NCBI GenBank assembly: GCA_944359705.1
Contig: CALVSZ010000002.1
Location: 1 to 40,918 of the forward strand
Reading direction: 5' to 3'
From: an uncultured Bacilli bacterium
GTDB taxonomy: Bacteria; Bacillota_I; Bacilli_A; RF39; UBA660
Length of the DNA stretch: 40,918 bases
Made by a program: the position numbers and the translations under genes. Shown piece after piece: positions 1,989 through 22,843 of the stretch. The notes under the pieces are model-generated. The model was given only the letters and a program-made list of their open reading frames with translations. It ran no database searches and was not told the DNA's origin. The stretch's first letter is position 1, and each line of letters begins with the position of its first letter.

Positions 1989-3368
1989 CTATTCTATTAT
2001 TAAAATTTGACCAATACTTAATAAATTACCTGTTAAATTATTTAATCTTTTTAATTCGTCTACGGTTGTATTAAATTTTCTAGCTATTCCATATAAATTA
2101 TCTCCACTTTTTACAACATAAGTAGTCTCTGTTATAGATGTAGTAGGTATTTTTAATATTTGACCGATACTTAATAAATTACTTGTTAAATTATTTTCTT
2201 TCTTAATAGCATCTACAGTAACATCATAATTTTTAGCAATTGAATATAAACTATCTCCACTTTTTACCGTATATGTAATAGTATTACTGTTTTGCTCATT
2301 ATTACTATTTGGTATTTTTAACACTTGACCTATACTTAAAGTATCACTTGTTAAGTTATTAGTATTTTTTAATTCGGATACAGTTGTTCCTAACTTATTT
2401 GCTATTCCATATAGTGTGTCTCCTTTTTGCACCGTATAAGTATCTGCTATTACTGTAGCACTTGGTAATAATAGTGTTTGACCTATTGTTAATACATCAC
2501 TTGTTAGTTTATTAATCGTTTTTAATTCAGATACGGTTGTATTATTTTCTCTTGCTATTGAATACAAACTATCTCCTTTTTTTACTACATATATATTCTT
2601 TTCACCATCTTGCACATATTTTTCTGGTATTTTTAATATTTGACCTATACTTAAATTATTACTTGTTAAATTATTTAGTTTTTTTAATTCATCAACAGTA
2701 GTACCTAATTTATTTGCTATTCCATATAATGTATCTCCTTTTTGGACTGTATATGAATTACTAACAAACCCTTCTGGAGGTATATAATTAAATCCTTTAT
2801 AATCTGCAACTGCTCTAATTACTGCTTCTGCTAATCTTTGATAATTTTCTTTTAAAAATTCTACATTAGCATTACTATCATCTATAAAACCATATTCTAC
2901 TATTATTGGTTCTGTTTTTCCAGTATTTCTATGAATAAAATAATAATCTTTACTAGTATCAGATGGTAATCTTCTTTGATAATATTTTCTAGTTGTTTGA
3001 CCTTCTGCTCCAATAGACTCTAATACTTTTTTAGCAAGAGTATCAGTATTTCTAAGTGCATAAATTACTTCAGCACCGGTACCACCTCCCGCATTCAAGT
3101 GATTAGATATTACTATTACATCAGAATTATTTCCATAAGCATTTAATATCTTATTTACCCTATTAGTAGGATCCAAACTAACATCACTATCTCTTGTTAA
3201 AGTTACTGGAATACCTAACTCTTTAAATCTATCATACATGTACTTAGATATTAATAAAGTATAATCCTTCTCTAACATATCATTACCTACTGCTCCCGAA
3301 TCACTTCCACCATGTCCCGGATCTATAACAACTCCCGTTAACTTCCTGTCATAATTCAAGTTAATCAC
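1989..3368 (-). CDS. N-acetylmuramoyl-L-alanine amidase (Amidase_3 domain) with five C-terminal LysM repeats
   Basis: N-terminal VVIDPGHGGSDSGAVG and NHLNAGGGTGAEV motifs typical of Amidase_3. Five repeats follow of the form YTVxKGDxLYxIAxK..TTVxELKxxNNLTSxxLSIGQxLKIP (LysM). Confidence 0.9.
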   Translation of the reverse strand: MINLNYDRKLTGVVIDPGHGGSDSGAVGNDMLEKDYTLLISKYMYDRFKELGIPVTLTRDSDVSLDPTNRVNKILNAYGNNSDVIVISNHLNAGGGTGAEVIYALRNTDTLAKKVLESIGAEGQTTRKYYQRRLPSDTSKDYYFIHRNTGKTEPIIVEYGFIDDSNANVEFLKENYQRLAEAVIRAVADYKGFNYIPPEGFVSNSYTVQKGDTLYGIANKLGTTVDELKKLNNLTSNNLSIGQILKIPEKYVQDGEKNIYVVKKGDSLYSIARENNTTVSELKTINKLTSDVLTIGQTLLLPSATVIADTYTVQKGDTLYGIANKLGTTVSELKNTNNLTSDTLSIGQVLKIPNSNNEQNSNTITYTVKSGDSLYSIAKNYDVTVDAIKKENNLTSNLLSIGQILKIPTTSITETTYVVKSGDNLYGIARKFNTTVDELKRLNNLTGNLLSIGQILIIE

Positions 3369-3441
3369 CTCTATAATAATTTATGTATAAAAAAAGAAAA
3401 TGTATACTCGTTTAAGTATATTATTTCTTTACTTTTTTTAA
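3082..3441. repeat. 360-bp direct repeat, copy A (amidase codons 1-97 plus 73 nt upstream)
   Basis: Collinear with 12685-13044, with about nine mismatches by eye and no indel. Identity stops at ccacctcc on one side and at ctttactttttttaa on the other. Confidence 0.85.
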
Positions 3442-3577
3442 CATCTTTACCCTTTTTATCTAAAATTAATATTTCATTCTCATTTAACATAAAAATCACC
3501 ACTTAAATTGATTTAATAATTATTGTTAAACATGTGTTACCAAATGACTTTCACGACCACATAAATCTATATCATTT

Positions 3578-5239
3578 TTATTCAAAATATTGACCTAAAT
3601 TCTTTATAACATTTTCAAATTCATCCACCATTGCAGGCCTATTTCTAAAATATTTTTCATTTATTTCACTTAATATTGACATTACAACATCACTAGAATT
3701 ATCCATATTAATTATATGATTAATCTGAATAGCAACATCTCTATATGATTTTCTATTACTTGATTTAGACGCTGAATTAAGACACGAATTTTTATAAATA
3801 TTTAATAATTCATTATTATATTTTGGTAATAAATATTTTTCATATTCTTTTATATAACCCATATCATAATTACATATATTCAAAAACAATTCATCATACA
3901 TTTTCTCTTCTATATAAATTTGATTTAAAATTCTATCAACATATTTATCTTTCTTAATTTTTTCTATAATTTTAATTTTTTCTTCATTCCAATCAGTATT
4001 AGAATACAATTCCTTAATTTTAAGATAAATATCAAAATCATAACTAGAATACTCATAAAATATATCATATAAAATATTTTTATATTCTTCATTCATTTTA
4101 TTATCATAATATATTTGAGCTAATTTAAAAGCATATTTTTTACTTTTATAATCATCTTCACATAAATTACTTTTCAATATTTTTATAGCATCATCTAATT
4201 TATTTTCTTTAATTAATTCATCAACATACATCATACATATATTTTCATCATAAGAATATTTCTCTAACAATTTAATTATATTTTCTTCCTTATCATTTAA
4301 TATATATATTTGAATTAAATAATTTACATAATCTTTTCTGCAATAAAAATATTTTTTATCTTTAGAATTATCAAGTGCAGTTTCCAAAGAATTCTTTATT
4401 TCATCTAAATATAAATGTTCATTAATAAAATATTCCAATATACTCTTTAAATCTATACCATAATTATATAAATATAAATTTTTAACATCACTTATAACAT
4501 AGTCTAATATATCTTTAATTAACTTATCATCATTACCTATTATATCCAAAATATCAAATATTATCTCTATACAAGAATCAGCAACCATTCCCGTTGAACC
4601 ATTCGAATCATCTATCTCAGTTCTAGGAATTGAATCTAATAAAATAGTTACTATTGTAAATGCTGTATTATAATCCTCATTATCGACTAATTTTTTAGCT
4701 TCACTAATAAATTCTAACATAACATGCTCATATTTATATGAACTACTATAATCAATAAAGCCATATTTTCTATCCCCACAAGCACGAATAGCATTATATA
4801 TTTTATTTTCATAACTTTTCTTAGATAACTTAGGAAAAAAATCACTAAATTCAACTCTAAACTTATTTAATAAATCATCATCATTAACCAAACTATTATA
4901 AAGAAATTTTCTTATCTTTTTATCATTTATTTTATTAACTATATCTTCTAAATCATAACTTTTATTACTATCAAATACTTTTTCATCATTCAAACAATAT
5001 AAAACAGCAGCAATATGTTTACAATATTCTCCATTAGCATTATAAGGACAACTACATTCACCATTAATAAATATACCACTATCCATTTCAACTTTCACAT
5101 TATAATCTTCATTTCCATGTACTATCGCTGTTACATTACCCTTATTATTTTTAACTTTACCAACCTTACCTGAAGTATAATAATCATACCCTCTACTTAA
5201 AATATAATCAAAAAATTCATCTTCGAAATCTATTTTCAT
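3578..5239 (-). CDS. SWIM zinc-finger protein with a long helical-repeat C-terminal region
   Basis: CSCPYNANGEYCKHIAAVL fits the CxCxnCxH SWIM signature. The remainder is Y/K/L/E-rich and predicted helical (TPR-like). It is the last gene of the nine-gene array. Confidence 0.8.
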   Translation of the reverse strand: MKIDFEDEFFDYILSRGYDYYTSGKVGKVKNNKGNVTAIVHGNEDYNVKVEMDSGIFINGECSCPYNANGEYCKHIAAVLYCLNDEKVFDSNKSYDLEDIVNKINDKKIRKFLYNSLVNDDDLLNKFRVEFSDFFPKLSKKSYENKIYNAIRACGDRKYGFIDYSSSYKYEHVMLEFISEAKKLVDNEDYNTAFTIVTILLDSIPRTEIDDSNGSTGMVADSCIEIIFDILDIIGNDDKLIKDILDYVISDVKNLYLYNYGIDLKSILEYFINEHLYLDEIKNSLETALDNSKDKKYFYCRKDYVNYLIQIYILNDKEENIIKLLEKYSYDENICMMYVDELIKENKLDDAIKILKSNLCEDDYKSKKYAFKLAQIYYDNKMNEEYKNILYDIFYEYSSYDFDIYLKIKELYSNTDWNEEKIKIIEKIKKDKYVDRILNQIYIEEKMYDELFLNICNYDMGYIKEYEKYLLPKYNNELLNIYKNSCLNSASKSSNRKSYRDVAIQINHIINMDNSSDVVMSILSEINEKYFRNRPAMVDEFENVIKNLGQYFE

Positions 5240-5248
5240 ACACTACAC

Positions 5249-6274
5249 CTATCCTATTTTTTGAACATCTTCATTACACTTTTCTAAACTAAATTCATTT
5301 ATATCATAATCTCCCCAATCAGTATTTTCACCACTAAAAATATCTCCTAAAGTCCAAACTCCGCCACAATCATCTATTATTCCATATCCTTTCCCTGATA
5401 AAACTTCAAATTCATTCTCACTAGTACCGTGGGTTATTTTACTAAGAGTCAAATTAAATTGCCAATTATCTCCCCAGTCATAAATAACTTTCAATTTATT
5501 TTTTTCTTTTAAATTCAAATAAAATAATTCAAGGTCACTATAATATTCTCCTAAATATTCTTTTCCTATTTTAACATCAAATGGATGTGATAAATCACCA
5601 TTCATAGATAAAACTACTTTTTCGCAAAACCTGTTTATTGTTATATTACTATTTACTGAAATTTTTCTTTTAATTTCTTTATTAAATCCCTCTAACGAAA
5701 CATTAAATATATATTTTTTAGGTAATAGCATATCTTCTTTACTCTTTTTATAATCATCAATTCTATCATTTACTTCATTAACATCAAATCTTTTTTGTAA
5801 ATATTCTTTTTCACTCTTTAAATAATAAGAGTCATAGTCTTTTCTTTTTTCAGCAAATAATGCTACTAAATAATCACACATTTTATCATCTATTATTCCA
5901 TATCCTTTTCCCGATAAAACTTTAAAATCCACATTTTTATTACCATTATCTTCTTCTATAAAATTATCTACACTTAAATCAAAATAATAAAAATTATCAA
6001 AATTATATCTAATACAAAAAGATTTACCTTTCTTTAAGTTTAAACTTTTTAAAGTTAATTCTAATAAAGTTTTATCATATCTACTTTCTTCTATATCATA
6101 CGGCCAATATATATTTTTACCATATTCAAGTTCATAAATAGGAATTTTTTTACCATCCATAGAAACTATTACATACTCACATAAATCTGTTAACAAGATA
6201 TCTTCATCAACCAATATTTGTCTATTTATTTTATCTTCCAATTCACATAAAGTTACATTAAATAATACTTTCAT
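5249..6274 (-). CDS. Protein with two tandem MM3350/pRiA4b-ORF3-like modules
   Basis: Two internal repeats. Each starts with a (V/Y)(L/I)FNV(T/S)L...(I/E)(N/K)R(Q/K)I(L/S)V strand and ends in FxVLSGKGYGIIDD. The second also has YDWGDNWQFNLTL and IIDDCGGVW, which resemble the canonical YDFGDxW and CPPEDCGG motifs of this fold. Confidence 0.7.
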   Translation of the reverse strand: MKVLFNVTLCELEDKINRQILVDEDILLTDLCEYVIVSMDGKKIPIYELEYGKNIYWPYDIEESRYDKTLLELTLKSLNLKKGKSFCIRYNFDNFYYFDLSVDNFIEEDNGNKNVDFKVLSGKGYGIIDDKMCDYLVALFAEKRKDYDSYYLKSEKEYLQKRFDVNEVNDRIDDYKKSKEDMLLPKKYIFNVSLEGFNKEIKRKISVNSNITINRFCEKVVLSMNGDLSHPFDVKIGKEYLGEYYSDLELFYLNLKEKNKLKVIYDWGDNWQFNLTLSKITHGTSENEFEVLSGKGYGIIDDCGGVWTLGDIFSGENTDWGDYDINEFSLEKCNEDVQKIG

Positions 6275-6286
6275 AAAACACCAATC

Positions 6287-7300
6287 CTAATTTTTATCTA
6301 TATTATTTTTTATTTTCCAATCTTTTATTATTTGTTCATAATAATAATTTGAATATTCCAAATAATCTTTAAACAGTCCATATCTTCTTAAATTATCGTA
6401 AAATTTATCCATATAATCATAATTTCTAAGTGCATAAAACAATGCTTGTCTAATTTCTTTATCATAAATATTCCTTTTTACATATAAAGTCATTATATCT
6501 TTATGATTTAAATCATCATAATAAGGAAGCATATAAATATTTAAATCTTTATAATCCGGTATATTTAATTCCTTTATTTCTTCATCTGACAATTCACCAT
6601 AATTATCTGGAATATATTTTTTTATATAATCAAAAGGTTTAACTATACTATTAATATCAGTTTTATAATATATAACCATTCTATCTTTTATAATTCTTAT
6701 AATATCAATTAAATTAATTTCTTCATATTCATCTTTTACAGAATTAACATTAATTTTAGACATAAAATTATTATCATTCAAATCAAAATCACGATAATCA
6801 AAAAATTCTTCTTCCTCTTCATCATCAATAATAATAGTTGTTGAATAATTTGAATGTCCTAAAACATCAGTTTCATCTACTATTTGCTTTAATTCATAAC
6901 CACTAACATAATCAATTGCCCCTTTTCCAGCTCCATCAATTATCTTAGGATAATCATCATCCAAAGAAATATTTATACTATCAATAAAATTAATAACAAA
7001 TTCTATTTTACTTTGATAATTATATTCCAAAATCAACTCTTTATTAACATCAAAATCAATATCTTTTAACATAATCCCCATAGCAGACTTATATTGATTA
7101 TTATCAAATATTACATTTGCACTATCATATTTATCACTATCATAAGAAATAGTAAAAAATTTATTGGAATATAACTCAAATGATGTCAAAATAAAATATA
7201 CTAAATCAGCCAATGTATCACTGCTTTTTATTCCTACTCTACGATAAATTTTACTCTCTAACCCTTTTATTCCAACATTAAATATTAATTCTTTATCCAT
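6287..7300 (-). CDS. MM3350/pRiA4b-ORF3-like N-terminal module fused to an unknown C-terminal domain
   Basis: LIFNVGIKGLESKIYRRVGIKSSDTLADLVYFILTSF and IIDGAGKGAIDYVSGY parallel the modules in the neighbouring gene. There is an acidic DDEEEEEFFD linker, and the C-terminal half is unassigned. Confidence 0.6.
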   Translation of the reverse strand: MDKELIFNVGIKGLESKIYRRVGIKSSDTLADLVYFILTSFELYSNKFFTISYDSDKYDSANVIFDNNQYKSAMGIMLKDIDFDVNKELILEYNYQSKIEFVINFIDSINISLDDDYPKIIDGAGKGAIDYVSGYELKQIVDETDVLGHSNYSTTIIIDDEEEEEFFDYRDFDLNDNNFMSKINVNSVKDEYEEINLIDIIRIIKDRMVIYYKTDINSIVKPFDYIKKYIPDNYGELSDEEIKELNIPDYKDLNIYMLPYYDDLNHKDIMTLYVKRNIYDKEIRQALFYALRNYDYMDKFYDNLRRYGLFKDYLEYSNYYYEQIIKDWKIKNNIDKN

Positions 7301-7318
7301 ACCATAACTCCACTTATA

Positions 7319-8881
7319 TTATAAATGATAAAACTTAATAGATCTTGAAAGTTCACTATTAACTATTTTTTCAAAATCATTCCCCATCTTTATTCCAAAA
7401 TTCATAATTACTCCATCATAAATAAGTACATCTTTAAAAGGAAGTATTGTCATTATTACAGTTTCAGGTAAATTTTTATATGAAATAACATTATCTAAAT
7501 TATCATTTATTCCTTTTATCATATATGTTCTTTCTTTGTTCATAACAGCAGTATATTCTTCATAAAATTTTGCTACAATAAACATATCTCTAATACCTTT
7601 TTTAAACTCACAAGTTAATTTCAACTCTTCACTATTAAATTTATAAGGATTTGCTAAACAAAATTCCAAAACAATCACATCTTTATTCTCCCAAAATACA
7701 TCAATAATATCCGTAATATCATATGGATTTATACCTTTTTTATTATATATTTTATAATTAGATCTTATTTTATATTTATTGTTCGTAAACTCAAGTAATC
7801 CAAAATATATTTTATAAAATAACTTAGCATCTTCTCTAGACAAACAAGCATTTTTTTGCTTTATATATTTTTTCTCTTTCTCATATCTATTTTTATTTTC
7901 TTCAATTTTAATCTTTTTAGCCTCATTTGGAGTAAATCCATTTAATACTCCACTAGGCATCTCATCCATAGCTTCATCTAATATTTTGAAAAAATTTGTT
8001 AAATCACAATTTTTAAGTGCTGGCACATTTGAAATTGCATTCTTTAATGGTTTTCTATCAATATTCAACACTGCAAATTCTCTAATTATATCGAGTGCTG
8101 AAGTCCAAAAAAACGGTAATTTTTTTATTTCGTCCAAAAATCTTTTTATTTTTTTATTATTAATATCAAAATCATTATAAAATAAAGTTTTATATATTTT
8201 AGAATCTATCGGCAAATCACCTGCTAATCCTTGTTTCATTCTCTCTTCATCTATCTGTTCTTCAATACCATAATAATCTTGATACAACGCTACATATATA
8301 TTATCTCCCAACCCTTCTATATTTTTAGGATAAATCATTACATAATAATTAAAAACCTTATTATGTAATACATGAGTATATATATCATTTTCACTAATAC
8401 CACTCATCATAGAACCAAACAAACATACAGTATTTAATAAAGAAGAAGCTTGTATTTTACAATAACTAACTAAAATTTCATTTAAATCATTTAATTTTTT
8501 AACAGTTGTCCAATTAACATTTTTAATAGCCAATCTTACCTTATCTATTATTTCATCAGGAATAAATACTCTATCCGGATAATCAGTTTCTACTAAAAAC
8601 TTGCCATGTAACGTTTTTCTTTCCCAATCATATTTATCATCTAATAATTCCTTCATAGATGAATTTCCATCAAGTATCATCTCTATATACTTTAATTCTC
8701 TTACAGTACAAATATCAATAATATTATTATAATCCTCATATACTTTATATATTGCATCCAACATTTTAACAGCTGTTATTTTTTCATAATCTTTAAATGG
8801 TTCTACAATCCTTGCATATTGATTATGAACAAATTCTTTTTTATACCATTTTATTCTTTCATACATTTTACTTGTTCTCAT
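7319..8881 (-). CDS. Hypothetical protein (520 aa), function unknown
   Basis: Long uninterrupted ORF in the operon-like array. No catalytic motif that I recognise, and no TM segment or signal peptide. Confidence 0.75.
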   Translation of the reverse strand: MRTSKMYERIKWYKKEFVHNQYARIVEPFKDYEKITAVKMLDAIYKVYEDYNNIIDICTVRELKYIEMILDGNSSMKELLDDKYDWERKTLHGKFLVETDYPDRVFIPDEIIDKVRLAIKNVNWTTVKKLNDLNEILVSYCKIQASSLLNTVCLFGSMMSGISENDIYTHVLHNKVFNYYVMIYPKNIEGLGDNIYVALYQDYYGIEEQIDEERMKQGLAGDLPIDSKIYKTLFYNDFDINNKKIKRFLDEIKKLPFFWTSALDIIREFAVLNIDRKPLKNAISNVPALKNCDLTNFFKILDEAMDEMPSGVLNGFTPNEAKKIKIEENKNRYEKEKKYIKQKNACLSREDAKLFYKIYFGLLEFTNNKYKIRSNYKIYNKKGINPYDITDIIDVFWENKDVIVLEFCLANPYKFNSEELKLTCEFKKGIRDMFIVAKFYEEYTAVMNKERTYMIKGINDNLDNVISYKNLPETVIMTILPFKDVLIYDGVIMNFGIKMGNDFEKIVNSELSRSIKFYHL

Positions 8882-8952
8882 TTATTACCACTCCTAACAT
8901 ACATCTAAATAGTCATTAATTTCCATATTCTATCACAATTTGCTATTTACCA

Positions 8953-9387
8953 TTAAAATATATCATAATATGTTCCATTATCAAAATCATCTAATGTTTC
9001 AAAAAAATCATCCATACTATCTTTAATAAAAATACACATAAATTTGTAATCATCTACATTAACATAATTATTTTCACTCATATATTGATAAAACTTCTTT
9101 AAACTAGCAACCATTTCCTTTATTGAATTTTTTGAAGCCAATAAACATTTTCGAATAAACCATCCATCTATAAAAGAATAAATATCATCTATACCATCTT
9201 CAGCCTTAATGACCTCATAATAATTTAAATAATCATTAATATATAAATCAACATTACTTAAATGTTTTCTTATTGTTTTCGCTACTAAACCTTTTTCAAT
9301 TAACCACTTTTCAAACCCTTTAATAAATTTTTCATTTCTTTTACAATTTTCTTCAACTTTCTTTTCAAAGTCAGTATAATCACTCAC
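8953..9387 (-). CDS. Hypothetical protein with an integrase core-binding (SAM-like) type helical segment and no catalytic domain
   Basis: FEKWLIEKGLVAKTIRKHLSNVDLYINDYLNYY resembles the N-terminal core-binding domain of tyrosine recombinases. The protein is only 144 aa and lacks the R..HxxR..Y catalytic region. Confidence 0.55.
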   Translation of the reverse strand: MSDYTDFEKKVEENCKRNEKFIKGFEKWLIEKGLVAKTIRKHLSNVDLYINDYLNYYEVIKAEDGIDDIYSFIDGWFIRKCLLASKNSIKEMVASLKKFYQYMSENNYVNVDDYKFMCIFIKDSMDDFFETLDDFDNGTYYDIF

Positions 9388-9396
9388 ATTTTACTC

Positions 9397-10614
9397 CTAT
9401 TTTATTTCTATATTTTCTAACGATTCCCATTTAATATATTTTAATATTTTATCGTCTTCAATATGCATAAATTCTAATGGTTTATATTCTTTAAAATAAC
9501 CCCCACATGCAATTGGCGCTATTTCATTCGGAACAATCCCTATATAATCATCCCCACTGAGCGAATTCTTTATCACATCTACATTATATATTTGTATAGG
9601 AATACCATTCTTATTAAAGACATTAAATATTTTAGCTATTTCAATTTTCCTTAAAATTTTACTACCATCAAGCGACAAATAATATCCAAATTCATCATGT
9701 CCAACTCGTAAATTAACTCTTGCAAATGAATGGCCTCTTATAATTTCCCACGGATGTCCACCAAACTTTGTATCATCGTTGTACCATTTATCGAACTGAG
9801 CACTGTTATTCTCATCAACCTTACTTAATCCTTCATCTCTTCCATCAGCATATTTTAAATATAACTCTTTATTTGTTAGATCACCTATTTCATATCCTAT
9901 ATTTTTATAGACTAAACCGACACATTCAAAATATTTACCTGAAGTCATATTTTTTATTCTATTATCTTGTTTTTTGCTCGCATTTTTTATAAAATAATCC
10001 ATTTCTTCTTGTGATATTTTATTTAATAAATTCTTTTTATTATCTGGATATAAATTCCAATAATCTTTTCTTTTTATTACTCCAAATCTATTTTTATAAG
10101 AATAATTTTCTTTTATATAATCATTATAAGTTCCACTTTCAAGTTTCTTAATACATTCTTTTACTTTGTTTATAAGAAAATCTAATAATTCTTGTAACTG
10201 ATAATTCGGTGGAATACAATTATCACTATCCATATCAGCATATATTATATTTTTAAAATTAATAGATATCATTCGATAATTTTTATATCTAGTCGAAATC
10301 ATTTTATACCAATAAATTTCATCTGGATAATCTTCATTAAATCTATCAACAAATTCTTGATATTCTTCAGCATCACAATATTCATTTTCATCATTATAAT
10401 TAATATATTCTTCTATACTTCCCTTTGGAGCACTAAAATATAACACTTTATATTCATCATCTGATAATGGTTTTATTCTATCAAGTAAATCATATAATAT
10501 ACCTAATTTTTCTTTGAGTAAAACGTCATAACTTTGTGGATTGTAGTTTTTAATATCAAACACATCTATTAAAAAATCTAATTTTGGAGCAGTCATCATA
10601 ATTATCATCTCCAC
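9397..10614 (-). CDS. Hypothetical protein (405 aa), function unknown
   Basis: Long ORF whose ATG shares one base with the stop codon of the upstream gene (10614). No recognised motif. Conserved-looking C-terminal segment FGGHPWEIIRGHSFARVNLRVGHDEFGYYLSLDG. Confidence 0.75.
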   Translation of the reverse strand: MEMIIMMTAPKLDFLIDVFDIKNYNPQSYDVLLKEKLGILYDLLDRIKPLSDDEYKVLYFSAPKGSIEEYINYNDENEYCDAEEYQEFVDRFNEDYPDEIYWYKMISTRYKNYRMISINFKNIIYADMDSDNCIPPNYQLQELLDFLINKVKECIKKLESGTYNDYIKENYSYKNRFGVIKRKDYWNLYPDNKKNLLNKISQEEMDYFIKNASKKQDNRIKNMTSGKYFECVGLVYKNIGYEIGDLTNKELYLKYADGRDEGLSKVDENNSAQFDKWYNDDTKFGGHPWEIIRGHSFARVNLRVGHDEFGYYLSLDGSKILRKIEIAKIFNVFNKNGIPIQIYNVDVIKNSLSGDDYIGIVPNEIAPIACGGYFKEYKPLEFMHIEDDKILKYIKWESLENIEIK

Positions 10615-10874
10615 TATTTTATATATTTATCGATTAATTTTTTAGCTAATTCTTCGCCTTCTGGTGTTAAAGATACTGATTTATTTTTATATTCACTAAA
10701 GTATAAATATTTTTCATCCATTAACTTGTTAATAATATCAAACGAATATCCTTTCCAACAAGTTTTAATCTTCGTTTCTTTTGGCATACCATTTTCATCA
10801 GCCACATATCCATCTTCTTCCCAAGAAGTTAAATAAATAAGCAATAATGTTAATTCTTCAATATTTTTTTCCAT
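10614..10874 (-). CDS. Small DUF6429-like protein
   Basis: 86 aa. LTLLLIYLTSWEE...CWKGYSFDIINKLMDEKYL...KSVSLTPEGEELAKKLIDKY matches my recollection of the DUF6429 pattern (LLLxYLxSxEE...WKxxDxDxLxxL...SVxLTEEG). Confidence 0.5.
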   Translation of the reverse strand: MEKNIEELTLLLIYLTSWEEDGYVADENGMPKETKIKTCWKGYSFDIINKLMDEKYLYFSEYKNKSVSLTPEGEELAKKLIDKYIK

Positions 10875-10891
10875 TTACTATACCACCTTCA

Positions 10892-11830
10892 CTACAAATT
10901 TTTAAATACATCAAATAATATTTTAATAGTTTCCTTAGCATCATCAATAGTTATTACACTTTCATTATCCATTACATATATTCTTTGCATTTTATTAAAA
11001 GCACTAACTAAGCCGTCATTAAACTCTAACTTCATATAATCAAAATCAATTATATCTTTATCTTCAGGAATTCCACCTATTCTAGATTTTTCCTCTTTTC
11101 TCTTATAACCTATTAATTTAGTTAATTCAGATTTATTTTTTAATAGTTCTTTTATATCATCATTTTTTATCATAATAGAAATATCATATAAATGTTTAGA
11201 AACATCTTCATACATTTCTCTTTCATAATAAAATTCTGCAGCAAATATTTTATCAATAAAGATTCTTTCAAGTTTAATAATTTCTATTTCAAATTCAGAT
11301 ATATTATAATTTTCTTTCAAAATACTTCTTTCTTCTTCTGTTGCATACTTATAAACAAGAGGTTCAATAGTATAAGTAGAAACTGGTTCAGATACAGTAA
11401 ACGAAGTCGCTTCTATCTGTATTCTTTCTGATTTAAAAAGTTCATTTAAACTAAACAATGAATCATATTTATAAAATGATGTAATACTTCCTTTTTTATC
11501 AATTGTTTCATCATCTACTAATATTAAACCATCAATACTATATCCAAGTGCAGACTTTTTTAATCTTGTTTTGTTACTATTATTTGATTCATTTTCGTTC
11601 ACTTTAACAGTTAAATCAATATCTTCAGAAAATCTATTCATATGATCTAATATTTTATAAACAGCTGTTCCACCTTTAAAATAAGCTTGTAATTCTTTTT
11701 GTTTATAAGCTAATTCTTTTAAAACAAGACAAACATAATAATCTTTCTCCAAAATATCATTTCTAATACCAGTTCTACTATTAATATTTAATATTAATTC
11801 TTCTAATATTTCTTTATTCAATATTTTCAC
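10892..11830 (-). CDS. AbiEii/AbiGii-family nucleotidyltransferase toxin
   Basis: FKGGTAVYKIL...NRFSEDIDLTV matches the GGTAL...R.S.DID nucleotidyltransferase signature of AbiEii. It overlaps the upstream AbiEi-like gene by 17 nt. Confidence 0.8.
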   Translation of the reverse strand: MKILNKEILEELILNINSRTGIRNDILEKDYYVCLVLKELAYKQKELQAYFKGGTAVYKILDHMNRFSEDIDLTVKVNENESNNSNKTRLKKSALGYSIDGLILVDDETIDKKGSITSFYKYDSLFSLNELFKSERIQIEATSFTVSEPVSTYTIEPLVYKYATEEERSILKENYNISEFEIEIIKLERIFIDKIFAAEFYYEREMYEDVSKHLYDISIMIKNDDIKELLKNKSELTKLIGYKRKEEKSRIGGIPEDKDIIDFDYMKLEFNDGLVSAFNKMQRIYVMDNESVITIDDAKETIKILFDVFKNL

Positions 11831-12467
11831 CTCCTAATTCATATAATCTTTTTATTGGTTTTAAATTATTTATTTTATTAGCGTATTCAAATATCTTTTC
11901 AAGTTCTAACTCATTATCTTTAATAAATTTATAAATAATTTCTTTTGCATTATCAACTTCAATTTTTATATTATCCTTATTAATTAACACATCAAAAAGT
12001 TGAAGATATTTATAATTATCATCATTAATTTCAATTTTAGGTCTTCTAATAGTAACACCTAAATTCTTATTATTATAATCATTTGCATTAGGGCACTCAT
12101 TAGTAACAATTAAAATTTCTTTTGGTATTTGCATAGTTAAACCTATTTTATTAAATAAATAAGCACCTGTTAAATATCCTTTTTGTCTAGTTCCATCATG
12201 TATATACTTCTTATCAATAACTTTATTAATATTTAAAAGTTTATTTCCAAATGTACCTTTTAAAGGCTTATAATAAACTCCTTTAATAAATTGAACAAGT
12301 TTATTATCCTTTACAAGTCTATTAATATATACATAAATATTTTTAAATACATCATCAAAATTATTTTTAATATAATTTTTAAAATAATCTTTGATGTCCT
12401 CAATAAAAATAGGTTCATCATATGGATATTCATCAATATACTTAATTAAAATATCATTATAATTCAT
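11814..12467 (-). CDS. AbiEi-family (type IV TA) antitoxin-like protein
   Basis: 217 aa located immediately upstream of, and overlapping, the AbiEii gene, which is the canonical AbiE arrangement. The call rests on size and position; there is no strong sequence motif. Confidence 0.6.
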   Translation of the reverse strand: MNYNDILIKYIDEYPYDEPIFIEDIKDYFKNYIKNNFDDVFKNIYVYINRLVKDNKLVQFIKGVYYKPLKGTFGNKLLNINKVIDKKYIHDGTRQKGYLTGAYLFNKIGLTMQIPKEILIVTNECPNANDYNNKNLGVTIRRPKIEINDDNYKYLQLFDVLINKDNIKIEVDNAKEIIYKFIKDNELELEKIFEYANKINNLKPIKRLYELGGENIE

Positions 12468-12489
12468 ACATATCCCTCCTAAATATATT

Positions 12490-12539
12490 ATGTTATTATT
12501 TTATTAAAATACGCAAAATATAACACCTGTTAATAACAT
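12490..12539 (-). promoter_or_regulatory. 9-bp inverted repeat pair (atgttatta ... taataacat) in the leader of the AbiEi-led array; candidate operator
   Basis: Perfect 9-bp arms at 12490-12498 and 12531-12539, separated by 32 nt. They lie between the predicted -10 box and the AbiEi start codon. Confidence 0.3.
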
Positions 12540-12566
12540 TATATATTATTTTTAATTATATGTCAA
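12538..12566 (-). promoter_or_regulatory. Consensus sigma-A-type promoter for the nine-gene array
   Basis: On the minus strand it reads TTGACA, a 17-nt spacer, then TATAAT (ttgacatataattaaaaataatatataat), about 70 nt upstream of the AbiEi ATG. Confidence 0.55.
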
Positions 12567-12593
12567 CTAAACTCCATTTCAAACTTATAAAAA

Positions 12594-12627
12594 TCAAAAA
12601 AATACTAGAAATTATTTTACCTAGTAT
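12594..12627 (-). terminator. Rho-independent terminator downstream of the truncated amidase ORF
   Basis: 7-bp stem atactag/ctagtat with a 12-nt loop. On the minus strand it is followed by a run of 7-8 U. Confidence 0.5.
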
Positions 12628-12656
12628 TTTATAAATTTATAATTTGGCTTTAATTG

Positions 12657-12971
12657 TTATACATTCGTTACACAATGACTATCGCCACCTCCTGCATTCA
12701 AGTGATTAGATATTACTATTACATCAGAATTATTTCCATAAGCATTTAATATCTTATTTACCCTATTAGTAGGATCCAAACTAACATCACTATCTCTTGT
12801 TAAAGTTACTGGTATACCTAACTCTTTAAATCTATCATACATATACTTAGATATTAATAAAGTATAATCCTTCTCTAACATATCATTACCTACTGCTCCA
12901 GAATCACTTCCACCATGTCCCGGATCTATAACAACTCCTGTTAACTTTCTATCATAATTCAAGTTAATCAC
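12657..12971 (-). pseudogene. 5'-truncated copy of the amidase gene (codons 1-97, then 7 unrelated codons and a stop)
   Basis: The first 97 aa are identical to the intact amidase at 1989-3368. The sequence diverges right after NHLNAGGG into DSHCVTNV-stop. The rest of the catalytic domain and all LysM repeats are absent. Confidence 0.8.
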
Positions 12972-13044
12972 CTCTATAATAATTTATGTATAAAAAAAGA
13001 AAATGTATACTCATTTAAGTATACTATTTCTTTACTTTTTTTAA
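12685..13044. repeat. 360-bp direct repeat, copy B
   Basis: See copy A (3082-3441). It includes the last codons of the Fic-like gene, the amidase promoter region and amidase codons 1-97. Confidence 0.85.
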
Positions 13045-13983
13045 GACAGACATTGTTTCTCCTAATCTATCTTGATTATAATAAATTTGTTTTTCAAAAA
13101 GAAGCATATTAAATGTTATCCATTCATTGAAAATAGCAGTTGAAGGATTAACCGCAAATTCTTTAATTAAATTCCTATACACTCCTCTTTTATTAAGACG
13201 TATTATTGCATCAGAACTATACAGTACCGGTAATTCTATATAAGAATTTTCTAAATACTTATTAGCTAAATCCCATATAGAAACATGTTCTAAAACTCTA
13301 GATAATCTTGTATTTCCATCTCTAAAACATTGTAAAGCCGCTAATAAACCATGAATAATAATTGGATTTACAAATATATCACTTAATTCTAATATATCTT
13401 TTTTATTATATAATTTTAATATTTTATCAAGAGTTACTTTTATATCCTTATAATCTATTGGAAGATAAGATACATTTTTTATTGAAGAAATTTCCCCAGT
13501 TAATGGAGATATAGAAAACGAACCTACAAAAGTATTATTATCAGTTCTATACTTACTTTCTTCTTCAATTGAAGTAGCAAGTCCATTTAATAGAATTTTA
13601 TGATATTTACATAAATTATTTATCGTACAATTTCTACCGTTTAACTTATCTCTTATTGCAAAATTAGTCGCAGACTTATGATTAGAATTCATAAATACTT
13701 GAATTAAAAATGGACTAATTGACTCTAAAGCCTGATTACTCTTTATTTCTTCTTCTTTTAATGACTTTAAAAAAGGAGTTTTATATTCTTCTAATTGTTC
13801 TAAAGAACTAATAAAGTTCACATACAAATCAGTTATATCCTCAATTAAAAACTTATTATTACTGCTTAATTTAAATTTATCTAAAATATCAAAGACATAT
13901 AATCCTGTTTGTTTTGCATCACCTAAATTAGCAATATTACTAATATATCTTTTAAATTCTAAGTCATCCATTATGTAATTCAC
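13024..13983 (-). CDS. Fic/DOC-family-like protein with a degenerate active-site motif
   Basis: LQCFRDGNTRLSRVL aligns with the Fic signature HPFx(D/E)GNGRxxR, but with His to Gln and the second Gly to Thr. Confidence 0.65.
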   Translation of the reverse strand: MNYIMDDLEFKRYISNIANLGDAKQTGLYVFDILDKFKLSSNNKFLIEDITDLYVNFISSLEQLEEYKTPFLKSLKEEEIKSNQALESISPFLIQVFMNSNHKSATNFAIRDKLNGRNCTINNLCKYHKILLNGLATSIEEESKYRTDNNTFVGSFSISPLTGEISSIKNVSYLPIDYKDIKVTLDKILKLYNKKDILELSDIFVNPIIIHGLLAALQCFRDGNTRLSRVLEHVSIWDLANKYLENSYIELPVLYSSDAIIRLNKRGVYRNLIKEFAVNPSTAIFNEWITFNMLLFEKQIYYNQDRLGETMSVLKKVKK

Positions 13984-13985: not shown

Positions 13986-15836
13986 CTAAACATTATCATC
14001 TTTTACTTTTGTTTTTATATATCCCTTTTCTTTTGCTTTATTTAACACCGAAATACATATTTTCTTACCAATAACTTTAACAGCTAAAATAGCATAACAT
14101 GCACTTAATATTGTATCAAAGTATAATAATATTTGATGGTAAGGAATACTTCTATATTTATCTATATCTATTTCAATAGTTTCTATTTGATCATTAATAT
14201 TATGATAAGAATTATCTTTAAAATCATCTCCAAAAACATCTGAATCATATAAATAATCTACATCACAATGTCCCATATTATTACTAGCGCCAGTATTCGT
14301 AGCAACATTAGTTACTTGCATAATTGAAGTTTCATATTGTTCCCCTACAAAGTTTTGTGTTTCAATTAAATCTTCAACCTTAACATCATCTAAATTTGTA
14401 TGTTCTCTTCCCGAATATTGTACACCACCAGCTTGCCATACAAAAAAGTCTGTATCCTTAAGTTCTATTCTTTCTCCATCTTTCTTAAGTGAACTACTAA
14501 TTTGTGTTAATGTATTTTTATTTCCATAGATACCTACTTTAGTAAAACCATAACTATTACATACATTTTTAAAAGTATTCAATAAACCATAATAATCATT
14601 ATCTGAACAGTAAACTTCAAAATCAAGAAATACTGGAATGTTTTCTTTTTCTAAAGTAATACTATTATCAAGTTCATCCATTAATCTATTAAAGTAATTT
14701 ATTAATCTTTTTTCATATTCTGATATATCCATATCCTTAGATACACAAAAATATAAACCTAAAGATATATCATTATTTATAGTATTAGTAATTTGATTTA
14801 TACATTCAGGAATAAAATATCCTGGATTTTCTTTATAATTATAATTATCTCTTGCCACTTCCACAATAACAAAATCAGAAGTTTCTGCTACTCTATTCCA
14901 ATCAATATTAACTTGATAATCAGATATATCAATTCCCCTTGCTATAGCATACATATATGATACTTCATTTGTTTTAGTATCAATACTTTGATATAAATTA
15001 GGAATACTAACAATATCTCCAACTTTAAGTTCACCTTTAGAGTTATTATTGTATAATCTTAAATCTTCTTCTGATAAACCAAACTCTAATGCAAGAGTAT
15101 TATATGTATCATCTTCTTTAGCAATATACTTAGCAGATAATACTAACTTTTCTTTAGAATTTGAACCTTTTTCCATTATAATTTTCGCCAAATTAGTACT
15201 ACTTTTAATTGTACCATCCAATTCTTTAACAATACTAGCAGTACCACTATAATCATACGAAGAGTTATCTTTAATTAAATAGCAATCAAAATCCTTTAAA
15301 GAACAAATATATTCTTCACATAAAGATAATGACATATCACTTCCACTCATTCCAATATATAAATTAGATGCATTAGCTTTATTAATAAAAGCTTCAATTA
15401 AACTATTCTTTTGAATATTATTTAAAGATTTATTATTCATAATACCATCAATGTTTAAAAATATTGGTAAATCTATTTTATATGTTAATAATAATGACTG
15501 AATAAAATCAATGTCCTTATATATACTTCCTAAAGTAGATGCATCAGTATCTAAAACTAAACCAACTGATATATCAAGTTCATTACACTTTTCTAATTGC
15601 TTTTGCAGATATGATAAATCATTACCATTACTTGATAAATGTAATAATACAAAATTATTTGGATGAACTTTAGTATTATACCTAATTCCTATATTTTCAT
15701 ACCCAATTGTATTCTCATCCGTACTATCTAAATAATTATCAGAGATTTCATTTCTAACAAGAAAATAACCCTTACCTACTAAAAAAGGTGCTCCTCCAAA
15801 TAAAAAAGCTAACTCTATTTTTTCTTTCTTTTTCAT
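13986..15836 (-). CDS. GH25-family muramidase with a LysM domain and a C-terminal membrane anchor
   Basis: ARGIDISDYQVNIDWNRVAETSDFVIVEVA and IPVFLDFEVY fit the GH25 motifs (DxSxxQGxIDW, LDxE). There is a LysM-like segment YIAKEDDTYNTLALEFGLSEEDLRLYN...GDIVSIP. The N-terminal ~200 aa look like a second, degenerate GH25-like module. The C-terminal segment ILLYFDTILSACYAILAVKVIG is hydrophobic. Confidence 0.7.
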   Translation of the reverse strand: MKKKEKIELAFLFGGAPFLVGKGYFLVRNEISDNYLDSTDENTIGYENIGIRYNTKVHPNNFVLLHLSSNGNDLSYLQKQLEKCNELDISVGLVLDTDASTLGSIYKDIDFIQSLLLTYKIDLPIFLNIDGIMNNKSLNNIQKNSLIEAFINKANASNLYIGMSGSDMSLSLCEEYICSLKDFDCYLIKDNSSYDYSGTASIVKELDGTIKSSTNLAKIIMEKGSNSKEKLVLSAKYIAKEDDTYNTLALEFGLSEEDLRLYNNNSKGELKVGDIVSIPNLYQSIDTKTNEVSYMYAIARGIDISDYQVNIDWNRVAETSDFVIVEVARDNYNYKENPGYFIPECINQITNTINNDISLGLYFCVSKDMDISEYEKRLINYFNRLMDELDNSITLEKENIPVFLDFEVYCSDNDYYGLLNTFKNVCNSYGFTKVGIYGNKNTLTQISSSLKKDGERIELKDTDFFVWQAGGVQYSGREHTNLDDVKVEDLIETQNFVGEQYETSIMQVTNVATNTGASNNMGHCDVDYLYDSDVFGDDFKDNSYHNINDQIETIEIDIDKYRSIPYHQILLYFDTILSACYAILAVKVIGKKICISVLNKAKEKGYIKTKVKDDNV

Positions 15837-16235
15837 ATTGATCCCCCCAAATTGGTAATTATTTTATCATAAAATATGATTATCGTCAAATTTTAATACT
15901 ATGTAAAATATTTATTCCGTTGTTTAATTTTTTCATTACTTCTTCCATTTTAATATTTAAATCTAAAGTTTCTTTATAATCATCAAATTGTGCATTATAG
16001 ATAATTTTTTTCATATCCAATTTTATCTTTTAAAAACTTACTATGTTTTGATATTATTCAAATGTTTTTTTATTATCTAGAATTCATATTATTCCTTTAC
16101 TAATTTTTCAAAAAAATAATTTTGTATTCCTCTATCTTTAGTAATGCAACACAATATATTATTTACTCTTCTTCAATTGTTTTTTATAATCAGTATTTCA
16201 TTTTCATTATATACAACAATACTATAATAAAATAA

Positions 16236-16264
16236 ATAGTCAGTAATAATTTTTAACTGACTAT
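16236..16264 (-). terminator. Rho-independent terminator after the J-domain gene
   Basis: Perfect 9-bp stem atagtcagt/actgactat with an 11-nt loop, 37 nt downstream of the stop. A U-rich tail (uuuauuuua) follows on the minus strand. Confidence 0.55.
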
Positions 16265-16300
16265 ATTTGTTAATTTATTCTATAATTTTCCTATTTTTCT

Positions 16301-16717
16301 TCAACGACCTTTGTTATGTTTTTTTGAATGATAAATAAGAATTGCTCTTACTTTACGTAATCTTTCCAATTCACTATCTCTTGCATCGTATATTCCATAC
16401 ATTTTTAACAAAATAATACTTAAAGTATCAAAATTACTTTTAGTGTTCTCTTTTGCTTGACTATATGATTTTGATCTTTCAAAATGTAATTCATCAAAAT
16501 GTTGTCTATCATATTCTTTTCTTTTTTCCACGTCAGATAACACTTCATATGCTACAGTTATCTTTTGCATCATATCGTTAGCATTAGGATTGTTAGGATT
16601 CATATCTGGATGATATTTTTTTGCTAATTTTCTAAATGCCCTTTTTATTTCATCTTGGGTAGCATCAGTTGATATTTCTAAAATTTCATAATAATTAGTC
16701 TTATTTTGTAATGACAT
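16301..16717 (-). CDS. J-domain (DnaJ-like) protein
   Basis: NYYEILEISTDATQDEIKRAFRKLAKKYHPDMNP is a canonical J-domain with the HPD tripeptide. There is no Gly/Phe or zinc-finger region, so this is not full-length DnaJ. Confidence 0.85.
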   Translation of the reverse strand: MSLQNKTNYYEILEISTDATQDEIKRAFRKLAKKYHPDMNPNNPNANDMMQKITVAYEVLSDVEKRKEYDRQHFDELHFERSKSYSQAKENTKSNFDTLSIILLKMYGIYDARDSELERLRKVRAILIYHSKKHNKGR

Positions 16718-16845
16718 AAAATTCCTCCTTAAAAGATAGATATATTATATAAAAAATATAAAAAAAGTCAAATTTTAATCCCTCAATTACTAAATTATAC
16801 ATATTTAGACATTATATTTATAAAATATATTAGAGGTGTATCACA

Positions 16846-17541
16846 ATGTTATTAAACATATTTAATTTTCTAATTAATAACTTTACTTTCTTTACTGGTT
16901 CATATTCTAATAATGTATTCCCTGATCCTCTACCAAAAGAAGAAGAAGAAAAATATATATTACAAGCTAAAAATGGCGATAAGGAAGCTAGAAGTAAATT
17001 AATAGAACATAACTTAAGATTAGTTGCTCATATTGTAAAAAAATTTGAAACAAATACTAATGACACAGATGATTTAATTGGAATAGGAACCGTAGGATTA
17101 ATTAAAGGAATAGATACCTATTCTCCTAATAAAAATGTAAGACTAACAACATACGTTGCTAAATGTGCAGAAAATGAAATTCTTATGTATTTTAGGGGAG
17201 ATAAAAAGAATTCAAAAAACATAAGTATATATGACAGTATCAGTTATGATAAAGAAGGTAACGAAATTACTATATTAGATATATTAAAAACACCAGATCC
17301 TGATTTTGCCTTAGAAATACATAAAAATGACAATATTGAATTATTAAAAAAATACTTAAATAAACTTACTAAAAGAGAAAAAGAAATAATTGAAGCAAGA
17401 TATGGTTTAAATAATAAAGAAGAAAAAACACAAAAAGAAATTGCCCAAAAATTAGGAATATCTAGAAGTTATGTATCTAGAATCGAAAAAAGAGCAACTA
17501 CTAAAATACTTAGAGAATTTATAAAAAATAACCATGTATAA
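16846..17541 (+). CDS. sigK: Sporulation sigma factor SigK (pro-sigma-K, uninterrupted)
   Basis: LIEHNLRLVAHIVKKFE, IGTVGLIKGIDTY, CAENEILMYFR and LGISRSYVSRIEKRA closely track B. subtilis SigK. The N-terminal hydrophobic pro-sequence ends in ...NNVFPDPLP. Confidence 0.85.
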   Translation: MLLNIFNFLINNFTFFTGSYSNNVFPDPLPKEEEEKYILQAKNGDKEARSKLIEHNLRLVAHIVKKFETNTNDTDDLIGIGTVGLIKGIDTYSPNKNVRLTTYVAKCAENEILMYFRGDKKNSKNISIYDSISYDKEGNEITILDILKTPDPDFALEIHKNDNIELLKKYLNKLTKREKEIIEARYGLNNKEEKTQKEIAQKLGISRSYVSRIEKRATTKILREFIKNNHV

Positions 17542-19425: not shown

Positions 19426-19948
19426 TTTTCACCTTCTTCTTTGGCACTTGTAATTTGACAATGTTATTTAATCTTCTAAACATTGTATAAGTATAATATA
19501 AAAACACAAATATTACTACGAATAGAAGAATAATTGATAAAGCAGTATTTCCATCAGTTGTCAAATAATCTTTAAATATAGTAATTACATAAATAGAAAT
19601 AATTTCTATTAATGAAGATATCAAATTTATTAACATTCTTTTAAAATTAGTAGAAAATAAATCAGATAAAATTATTAATACTATTGAAAAAATAGCATAA
19701 ATATAATTCATTTGAAAATTAATTAAACACCAAACTAAAAACAAATAATTAATAGACACTAAAGAAAATGATAAAATAGCATTATTATTCATATTCAAAA
19801 AGACACCATATAATTTTATTTTATCAATAGAAAATCTTTTAGATAATATTTTTAAAGTAATTGATAAGATAATTAAAAATATAACAGCTACAGCAGTAAA
19901 ACCTAATAAATTATATATAATATCACTATAATTCATAATTTCCCTCAT
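19415..19948 (-). CDS. Polytopic membrane protein (177 aa, about 5 predicted TM helices), unrelated to the F0 a subunit
   Basis: Hydrophobic stretches run through the protein. It overlaps both neighbours (23 nt and 11 nt). It has no a-subunit-like helix with a conserved Arg. Confidence 0.7.
   Translation of the reverse strand: MREIMNYSDIIYNLLGFTAVAVIFLIILSITLKILSKRFSIDKIKLYGVFLNMNNNAILSFSLVSINYLFLVWCLINFQMNYIYAIFSIVLIILSDLFSTNFKRMLINLISSLIEIISIYVITIFKDYLTTDGNTALSIILLFVVIFVFLYYTYTMFRRLNNIVKLQVPKKKVKNEN

Positions 19949-20334: not shown

Positions 20335-22843
<2,509 letters not shown>

Follow-up and report, generated by a model that had tools for sequence, protein, structure and literature searches.

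How does a block of nine genes come to lie between two copies of the front end of one gene when no enzyme that could have moved it is encoded alongside? The question is raised by a stretch of 40,918 nucleotides (nt) from an uncultured Bacilli bacterium (RF39; UBA660), namely positions 1 to 40,918 of contig CALVSZ010000002.1 in assembly GCA_944359705.1, hereafter the window, in which a nine-gene array is bracketed by 360-bp direct repeats that each contain the start of an N-acetylmuramoyl-L-alanine amidase gene. A first-pass annotation of this sequence had read the arrangement as a Campbell-type or otherwise homology-driven insertion of a cassette carrying an amidase 5′ segment. Comparison with related loci points elsewhere: the left junction of the array is the crossover of a site-specific attachment (att) site, and it is probable that the locus is a heavily used insertion hotspot for elements moved by large serine recombinases (LSRs), the array being stranded cargo that has no recombinase and not a cassette made by homology. 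Long direct repeats around an island need not imply homology-driven insertion.

The Repeat Pair and Its Surroundings

All genes of the region are on the minus strand, and in the direction of transcription the layout runs from a GH25/LysM gene encoding 616 amino acids (aa; 15836-13986) through a Fic-domain gene (13024-13983; Pfam Fic, E = 9.5e-7), repeat copy B with a 104-aa amidase stub, the nine-gene array, repeat copy A with a complete amidase, a DUF7695 gene, a Bro-N gene and a 79-aa open reading frame (ORF) to a third amidase fragment, which the first-pass annotation had overlooked. Self-BLAST of the window returned a single long direct repeat, 3082-3441 against 12685-13044, with 97.5% identity over 360 nt and a spacer of 9243 nt between the copies. 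The annotation had described collinear copies with about nine mismatches, and there are exactly nine, with no gaps. Each copy holds the last 6 codons and stop of Fic (13024-13044 in copy B), the intergenic and promoter region, and amidase codons 1-97.

The two copies are the front ends of two different genes, one dead and one alive. Copy B (12685-13044) consists of the Fic tail, a sigma-K-type promoter (13006-12980) and a split amidase that retains only residues 1-80 of the Pfam Amidase_3 domain; this stub (12971-12685, with a TTG start at 12962) runs through codons 1-97 and terminates at the att crossover GGAGGTGG (12692-12685). Copy A, delimited by alignment at 3082-3441, consists of a relic of the Fic tail, a sigma-K-type promoter (3403-3377) and codons 1-97 of the intact amidase, which extends in full over 1989-3368 (Amidase_3 plus five LysM domains by Pfam; likely TTG start at 3359) and is called as a 456-aa product in other assemblies. 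Two of the nine differences lie upstream of the ORF and the other seven are synonymous changes at third codon positions, as had been noted; by the Nei-Gojobori method the amidase part has a synonymous divergence (dS) of 0.13 and a nonsynonymous divergence (dN) of 0, and the probability that seven of seven random changes would be synonymous is about 2e-5. (The mismatch count for one related locus, L133, was left out of the dN/dS results because an indel makes it invalid; labels of this form denote the related loci throughout.) The earlier view that both copies evolved for a time as functional genes and are not a fresh duplication is well founded.

The structure is also real. The repeat and array recur in at least six independent assemblies, and both junctions are reproduced by contigs from other samples, two of which span both copies (ERZ24773461 NODE_1160, 40.6 kb, and ERZ24773513 NODE_343, 79 kb), so that the assembly artefact against which the annotation had cautioned can be set aside. 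Its statement that nine co-oriented genes lie between the repeats with no integrase, transposase or relaxase was borne out by several search routes: no serine or tyrosine recombinase, DDE transposase, integrase or relaxase was detected in the array or in the 40.9-kb window with Pfam, NCBIfam, PADLOC or PHROGs, and tblastn against the whole window gave no match when queried with the recombinases, transposase and relaxase that related loci encode.

An Attachment Site at Amidase Codons 94-97

A scan of metagenome contigs with amidase residues 1-93 yielded 80 loci from several lineages, at 56-99% amino acid identity. The amidase is intact in 61 of them, while the remaining 19 end within GGNGGNGG of codons 94-97, at the same point as copy B, and continue into four conserved, mutually unrelated tails. 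Conspecific strains add two further arm types at this point, for at least six arm types in total. Insertion at a defined nucleotide in independent events is expected of an LSR element, and the sequence of the attachment site at codons 94-97 is AAT GCN GGN GGT GG. The inner end of copy B (12685/12684) is thus the crossover of a site-specific att site and not an arbitrary limit of homology.

What follows that crossover in the window is the left end (attL) of one of these families, type 1. The 47 nt at 12638-12684 on the minus strand (CGATAGTCATTGTGTAACGAATGTATAACAATTAAAGCC..., a P′-type half site) are the same arm that follows the same crossover in L013, L049, L051, L053, L055, L059, L061, L067, L079 and L090. 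It shows 0/47 differences in every array-bearing locus, and it is the sole surviving part of the type-1 left end in the window. In L049, L051, L053, L055, L059, L061, L067 and L079 the arm leads into a ribosome-binding site and the ATG of a gene that Pfam identifies in L059 as TnpV (PF14198, 5e-37); beyond TnpV, the type-1 relatives carry restriction-modification or other defence cargo, a helix-turn-helix protein and a 524-aa large serine recombinase.

Elements in Related Genomes

The elements at this site, hereafter site 1, encode proteins of 524-554 aa with Resolvase, Recombinase and Zn_ribbon_recom domains, to which DUF4368 is added in L059 and L137. Identity among these recombinases is 48-56%; it falls to about 34% against TndX on plasmids and to about 30% against a 707-aa recombinase associated with a second site, described below. 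Some of the relatives' elements also carry a Mob_Pre (MobV) relaxase. One locus, L071 (type 3), holds a complete 9.5-kb element made up of attL, two methylases, a restriction enzyme, an LSR, Mrr and attR.

The arms of these elements have the inverted symmetry expected of such sites. In L053 (type 1) the arms GTCATTGTGTAAC (attL) and GTTACACAATGAC (attR) form an inverted repeat, and imperfect inverted arms around a GGTGG core are also found in L071 and at the second site (L135 and L137). In the window itself the attL is identical to type 1, and an arm at 296-253, on the far side of the array, is type-1-like only.

The second site lies in the same amidase at about codon 18, at CATGGTGGAAG, with inverted arms AAATCCAAAAAT and ATTTTTGGACTTT; it corresponds to 12909-12913 in the window. 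Its occupants (L014 at about 11069, L102, L107, L108, L135 and L137) show three arm variants. L107 and L108 carry the distinct 707-aa serine recombinase there, L014/L102 and L135 carry elements with a Mob_Pre relaxase, and in L137 a 533-aa recombinase adjoins the attR of an element nested in the stub's second site. This site serves another LSR clade than codons 94-97. Two att sites with several cognate LSRs, a shared attB and diverged attP arms should be useful for the study of LSR specificity and as candidate tools.

Immediately downstream of the type-1 recombinase gene comes a run of five to seven short hairpins of the form AACTTSNNNCC-AAWTTGG-NNNRAAGTT (L049 10680-11050, L051 16570-16950, L059 18840-19230), possibly an origin of transfer (oriT) or accessory sites. 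A scan of viral contigs gave one amidase match with no useful context.

A Step in Divergence at the Crossover

Loci bearing the array were gathered by look-up of a p520 variant. In all of them the array is preceded by the stub and the type-1 arm, in one of two chromosomal contexts: SigK-DnaJ-GH25-Fic, as in the window (context F), where Fic is conserved ahead of the stub, and XFP...UDG (context U; L131, L134, L135, L138 and L139). This allows the two sides of the crossover to be compared directly. Between the window and L131 (used in place of L013, to which it is 99.94% identical), the stub differs at 18 of 307 positions (5.9%), the last of them 15 nt before the crossover, whereas past the crossover the arm has no difference in 47 nt and the array only 36 in 9199 (0.39%). 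A step of this kind at the crossover is expected from site-specific integration into two diverged target alleles, since homologous recombination would have brought the donor's stub allele along. XFP genes compared across the two contexts showed no similarity and are uninformative on how the contexts might be linked.

Within the species, that is, within the F lineage, the flanks are 1.2-2.9% diverged and the array 0.23-0.29%, and the block of low divergence runs from about 13220 to about 2870, which is consistent with homologous exchange of the whole island within the species. The idea that this block ends at the attB of copy A, as it would if an element carried a replacement 5′ end, was rejected, since 220 nt beyond that attB are free of mismatches and the first one is met at 2862. 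The right side of the array varies between loci: some have the Fic tail there, some an ISAzo13 pseudogene and then Fic codons 67-315, and some type III restriction-modification genes.

The Second Amidase Copy and Its Upstream Breakpoint

The intact amidase contains its own attB core, GGAGGTGGTACCGG (3076-3089, minus strand). It is empty in the window, in L121 and in L132, and sister strains break here with other arms, the site being occupied in L133, L136, L140, L013 and L131; in L112 a type-4 attR is joined to an A-type amidase 3′ half. Further elements have accreted elsewhere in the locus as well. In L140 another LSR element directly abuts the type-1 arm, giving a hybrid junction, and in L137 the nested element described above occupies the second site of the stub.

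The upstream limit of copy A has another character. Where copy A begins, a 144-aa gene is cut, leaving its upstream region and 21 codons at 3442-3523 on the minus strand; the same gene is intact in L096 and L097 and runs for 117 codons in L013 and L131. In L013/L131-type loci the duplicated stretch is 1.1 kb long, starting at Fic codon 67, ending at amidase codon 97 and bordering on an ISAzo13 pseudogene; the full order in L013, L131, L135 and L137 is the 144-aa gene to codon 117, a split ISAzo13-family DDE transposase pseudogene, Fic codons 67-315 and the amidase. Because the 144-aa gene is truncated at 3441 and is longer in loci of this type, the 360-bp repeat is best seen as what a deletion of about 2.2 kb left of a duplication that measured at least 1.1 kb. 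Position 3441 is a secondary breakpoint, and the proposal that the array brought in an amidase 5′ segment does not hold, copy A being the start of a complete second gene. The ISAzo13 pseudogene (L013 8871-9889) lies exactly at the junction of the array side with Fic codon 67.

Mosaic A/B alleles occur in sister strains (L005, L101, L103, L109 and L133), and the two copies in L136 share identical private single-nucleotide polymorphisms (SNPs), which suggests gene conversion between the copies and makes their interaction probable, though assembler phasing could mimic the pattern. The first-pass annotation's expectation that the array would easily be lost by recombination between the repeats finds no support. 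About 12 conspecific contigs, a non-exhaustive sample, extend beyond Fic, and none of them has an empty site in which Fic leads directly into a single amidase; what they have there is the stub with the array, or an insertion at the second site. By the annotation's own reckoning the lack of such sites counts against the prediction.

Downstream of the intact amidase, in all strains seen, come DUF7695 (1715-1503) and Bro-N (1510-689), which together occupy 689-1715 on the minus strand by Pfam. The Bro-N protein matches the PADLOC candidate PDC-S13 (4.7e-96), and in other lineages (L027-L029 and others) homologues of Bro-N and of the 144-aa protein occur together ahead of UDG-amidase.

The Third Amidase Fragment

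Beyond Bro-N lies a truncated 79-aa ORF (508-269, minus strand), of which L117 carries a longer version and which is fused at about 293 to the type-1-like right arm, the two together covering 253-508. This arm, on the attR side at 296-253, reads AACTCCATTTTGACC...AACTCCATTTTGACCATC; its counterparts are the attR arms of L053 and L020, with which it aligns, and it forms an inverted repeat with the attL arm. At GGT(A)G it meets the third amidase fragment (253-71, minus strand), a fossil of the 3′ part that covers residues of about 93-196, begins at the same GGT(G/A)G core as the other breakpoints, and is 87% identical to 3091-2781 in copy A, with frameshifts and a 100-nt deletion lying between AGAAATACTG repeats. 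On longer contigs an amidase 3′ end comes after the fossil, and past it the chromosome is conserved (an acetyltransferase, an 843-aa gene and ParC). Because of this continuation, an ancestral amidase appears to have been split at the same attB, with everything from 12684 to 254 lying inside it.

A Proposed History

These observations can be arranged into a proposed sequence of events, of which the crossover, the arm and the step in divergence are directly shown. An element with type-1 arms, carrying AbiE and a seven-gene operon, would have integrated at the attB of the ancestral amidase and split it into stub B and a 3′ half. The 3′ half, whose partnership with stub B we infer, would then have decayed to the remnant at 296-71 with its type-1-like attR arm, while the element would have lost its recombinase end and kept 47 nt of left arm and the cargo, leaving it stranded in the manner of a cis-mobilisable element (CIME). 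A second, intact allelic copy, comprising a piece of Fic, the promoter and a complete amidase, would have come to lie downstream of the cargo and supplied both function and a fresh attB, which further elements would have taken in sister strains, and a deletion would have trimmed the duplication to 360 bp. The differences between A and B would be synonymous because they are old differences between two functional alleles. The array would move today only by flanking homology or by a recombinase acting in trans.

The arrival of the intact copy can be explained in more than one way. That it was carried inside a composite element moving as a unit is close to an even call; repair by an imported intact allele with one illegitimate or insertion sequence (IS)-mediated junction is a distinct but lesser possibility, and other routes seem unlikely. 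Conversion from A would keep B similar to it, and the AbiE toxin-antitoxin system could plausibly counter-select loss of the array. The feature is best placed with LSR integrative elements and with CIMEs that show accretion, possibly also with sporulation intervening elements, and is not a recombinase-free mechanism of insertion. What looked like a cassette with no recombinase lets one read how defence islands arrive at a single gene, become stranded there and pile up.

Several observations weigh against this history and must be set beside it. We infer catalysis by an LSR from the relatives, the window itself having no recombinase, and no attP-bearing contig or circular form was found. The fossil and its attR arm are present whatever occupies the main amidase (L122 and L123), and the fossil diverges by 1-4.5% between strains and by 13% from copy A, so that it is older than the spread of the array; fossil and arm may therefore be left over from an earlier element, and their candidate role as the right end of the array itself is weakened by the occurrence of the fossil in strains with other elements in the main amidase. 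No attR lies directly to the right of the array, where the truncated 144-aa gene is fused to the Fic tail instead. That stub B is 97.5% and the fossil only 87% identical to A calls for an additional assumption of gene conversion. The right ends of the U-context loci are not seen in the contigs, and divergence in DUF7695, in Bro-N and towards the 3′ end of amidase A is 1.2-2.3%, which is chromosome-like and not array-like and argues against a recently moved composite.

Alternative Explanations

The last point bears most directly on the alternative that survives best, in which the 12.4-kb interval 12684-254 is in its entirety one composite, trans-mobilisable element that holds a captured intact copy of its own target gene, a "replacement amidase" with its own attB, and moves as a unit when another element supplies a type-1 LSR. 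Type-1-like arms in proper inverted orientation at both ends are what such an element should have, and in U-context genomes, too, the array has an F-like Fic(67-315)-amidase on its right. A locus from a distant lineage, L020, offers a parallel in that an attR-like arm and an amidase fossil lie 2.5 kb beyond its full amidase, and the accretion at both att sites in relatives fits as well. Against this, divergence between strains in DUF7695, in Bro-N and towards the 3′ end of amidase A is 5-10 times that of the array. The fossil arm matches the attL arm only moderately, the right end has not come into view in any U-context locus, and L111, L114, L119 and L120 are without the 79-aa ORF and the attR part of the fossil after Bro-N, L111 alone being seen with a 104-nt fragment of the amidase 3′ end. 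We regard this explanation as possible but doubtful.

The Campbell-type explanation, in which a circular non-replicating cassette with a 360-bp amidase 5′ segment entered by a single homologous crossover and no site-specific enzyme took part, has points in its favour. The co-terminal direct repeats each include the Fic tail and the promoter, their divergence is allelic and synonymous only, and direct repeats of the L013/L131 type could in principle form the required circle; the low-divergence block within the species also fits transfer of an island by flanking homology. At the left junction, however, this explanation is largely refuted. The inner end of copy B is the breakpoint of at least six unrelated elements, as seen in the 19 of 80 interrupted loci, and is followed by the conserved arm; the stub does not travel with the array, since divergence changes at the arm; copy A belongs to a complete gene, and its outer limit truncates the 144-aa gene and lies further out in L013 and L131, so that the limits of the repeats are not set by homology alone; and no empty site was seen among the conspecific contigs compared. 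As an account of the insertion it is quite improbable, and what can stand of it is a role for homology in the origin of the second copy and in spread within the species.

Least probable of all is a tandem duplication of Fic-amidase followed by LSR insertion into the upstream copy and deletions that removed the right part of the element and the 3′ end of that copy, for although Fic sequence precedes both copies and deletions and IS activity are in evidence in the region (a 165-bp Fic deletion, the ISAzo13 pseudogene and truncated genes), a dS of 0.13 with a dN of 0 between the copies, far above the dS of 0.002-0.005 of the array, is unexpected for unstable tandem copies, and both the fossil downstream of Bro-N and the U-context loci with no upstream Fic are left unexplained.

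A Possible Link to Sporulation

The preferred reading, an LSR hotspot with stranded cargo, places the insertions inside a gene that is probably expressed in the mother cell during sporulation. An AC-N16/17-CATANNNTA motif lies at a fixed distance upstream in 72 of 79 amidase homologues, against a background of 0.008 per 160 nt, and within both repeat copies the motif reads AC-N16-CATAAATTA (13006-12980 and 3403-3377). The sigma-K-type consensus has AC at -35 and a -10 element shared with sigma-E, and the sigma-K regulon of C. difficile includes putative amidases (PMC3789822). Only 3 kb from the hotspot the window also encodes an intact sigK (16846-17541; TIGR02846 score 302.6, cut-off 298.65) with no skin-like element inside. 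It is because of the conserved motif together with the intact SigK that the amidase is tentatively assigned to the mother cell.

A more specific proposal can be made tentatively from the same sequence features: the amidase may be a sigma-K-dependent mother-cell gene for lysis or coat, and a busy and previously undescribed target of developmentally excised LSR elements that ferry defence systems in uncultured spore-forming gut Bacilli, in which case the window would show an element left permanently stranded by the loss of its recombinase, together with an intact copy, kept by the cell or by the element, that restores function and serves as a landing pad for new defence islands. No report of the amidase as a target of intervening elements was found in the literature searched; it is a new candidate for sporulation-linked gene rearrangement.

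Comparison with Known Systems

Elements that interrupt sporulation genes are a close parallel, with skin in sigK, SPbeta in spsM, vfbin, vrin, and gin in gerE as described examples (PMC4191935, PMC5595907; Abe et al.). Like the elements at this locus, they are LSR elements inside a coding region with short att cores and inverted-repeat arms, and some, such as gin, are non-phage elements with restriction-modification genes; the target here, with its sigma-K-type promoter and a sigK in the same window, is probably mother-cell expressed too. Unlike them, the array of the window has no recombinase and cannot reconstitute the gene, and an intact second copy is present.

The CIMEs and the tandem accretion of integrative conjugative and integrative mobilisable elements in streptococci (Pavlovic 2004; Bellanger 2011; PMC5704250) are similar in that the array has no integration or transfer genes and further elements integrate beside or into it (L133, L136, L137 and L140). 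Classical CIMEs differ in depending on tyrosine recombinases, in lying at tRNA genes or gene 3′ ends and in keeping both attL and attR, whereas the relatives' enzymes here are LSRs, the target is in mid-gene, the array's own attR is missing or uncertain and a full copy of the target gene lies inside the composite.

With the mobilisable or conjugative clostridial transposons Tn4451/Tn4453 (TnpX, TnpV, TnpZ) and Tn5397 (TndX), the relatives' elements share a TnpV at their start, an LSR with a DUF4368 tail and in some cases MobV. The identity of their LSRs to TndX is low, as given above, their cargo is defence and not catP, and these genes are absent from the window; Tn4451 integration is also of low specificity, as opposed to the high site specificity seen here (PMC5704250). 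Campbell integration, for its part, would likewise leave direct repeats around an insert and one truncated and one complete gene copy, but here the gene is truncated where a site-specific crossover is conserved and an element arm follows, the two repeats represent old alleles and the outer limit is a secondary deletion.

The Cargo

The array opens with AbiEi (12467-11814) and AbiEii (11830-10892), two adjacent genes that overlap by 17 nt and span 10892-12467 on the minus strand (PADLOC 7e-42 and 2.5e-98; Pfam AbiEii and DUF6088). With an antitoxin/regulator gene next to a nucleotidyltransferase toxin gene they make up an AbiE system, and they resemble the type IV toxin-antitoxin abortive-infection systems of this name in their adjacency and overlap, the difference being that they are just the first two of nine genes. 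Ahead of AbiEi a promoter scan found a perfect sigma-70 promoter, TTGACA-17-TATAAT, on the minus strand (12566-12538), in agreement with the annotation's consensus promoter and matching at 12 of 12 positions; its terminator between the repeats, in contrast, falls short of the scanner's criteria and is just an AT-rich hairpin followed by a T-run. The sigma-K-type promoter of stub B would also read into the array.

The remaining seven genes form a tightly packed operon (3578-10874, minus strand) to which Pfam and PADLOC assign no function as a whole. In order, it encodes DUF6429 (10874-10614, Pfam), a 405-aa protein (10614-9397), a 144-aa protein (9387-8953), a 520-aa protein (8881-7319), two PRiA4_ORF3 proteins (7300-6287 and 6274-5249, Pfam) and a SWIM protein (5239-3578, Pfam), the last of which alone of the seven has a PADLOC match, to PDC-S62. 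A literature search on the PRiA4, DUF6429 and PDC-S62 genes returned nothing functional. The 405-aa and 520-aa proteins have no match in Pfam, NCBIfam, PHROG or PADLOC. Their AlphaFold models are confident (pLDDT 92 and 89), and a fold search of these models against PDB returned nothing better than E = 0.6; their homologues, hundreds of them in uncultured Bacilli, are all hypothetical. Both appear to be new families, and a conserved seven-gene operon whose two largest unknown proteins are modelled confidently with no known fold relative is one of the features that the locus brings to light. The two were considered as cryptic recombinases and rejected, neither sequence nor fold giving a match, as was the array's 144-aa protein, in which Pfam found only a SAM-like N-terminal domain.

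Between strains, dN/dS in the array is 0.6-1.4 at the low dS cited above, and several strains carry split or shortened array genes, with SWIM split in L121 and L140 and DUF6429 shortened in L101, L103, L133 and L136. These observations indicate that the array spread recently and that purifying selection is undetectable over so short a divergence. In other lineages, intact amidases are closely preceded by remnants of p337-like (PRiA4_ORF3) and p520-like genes (L023, L035, L071, L073, about 170 nt upstream, and L088 7608-9919), which suggests that similar arrays have decayed there.

Neighbouring Genes

The flanks of the island vary in their own right. The 616-aa GH25/LysM gene has a hypervariable patch at 15123-15210, seen as a dense SNP cluster in every conspecific comparison, the 165-bp deletion of the Fic 3′ end in L101 and L103 corresponds to 13013-13177 in the window, and L105-L108 are without the DnaJ-domain gene found at 15898-16742. 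The window also encodes an atypical ATP-synthase-like operon, a 1839-aa surface protein and three pilin-like genes (18637-23854 and 26089-33899), which are unrelated to the insertions.

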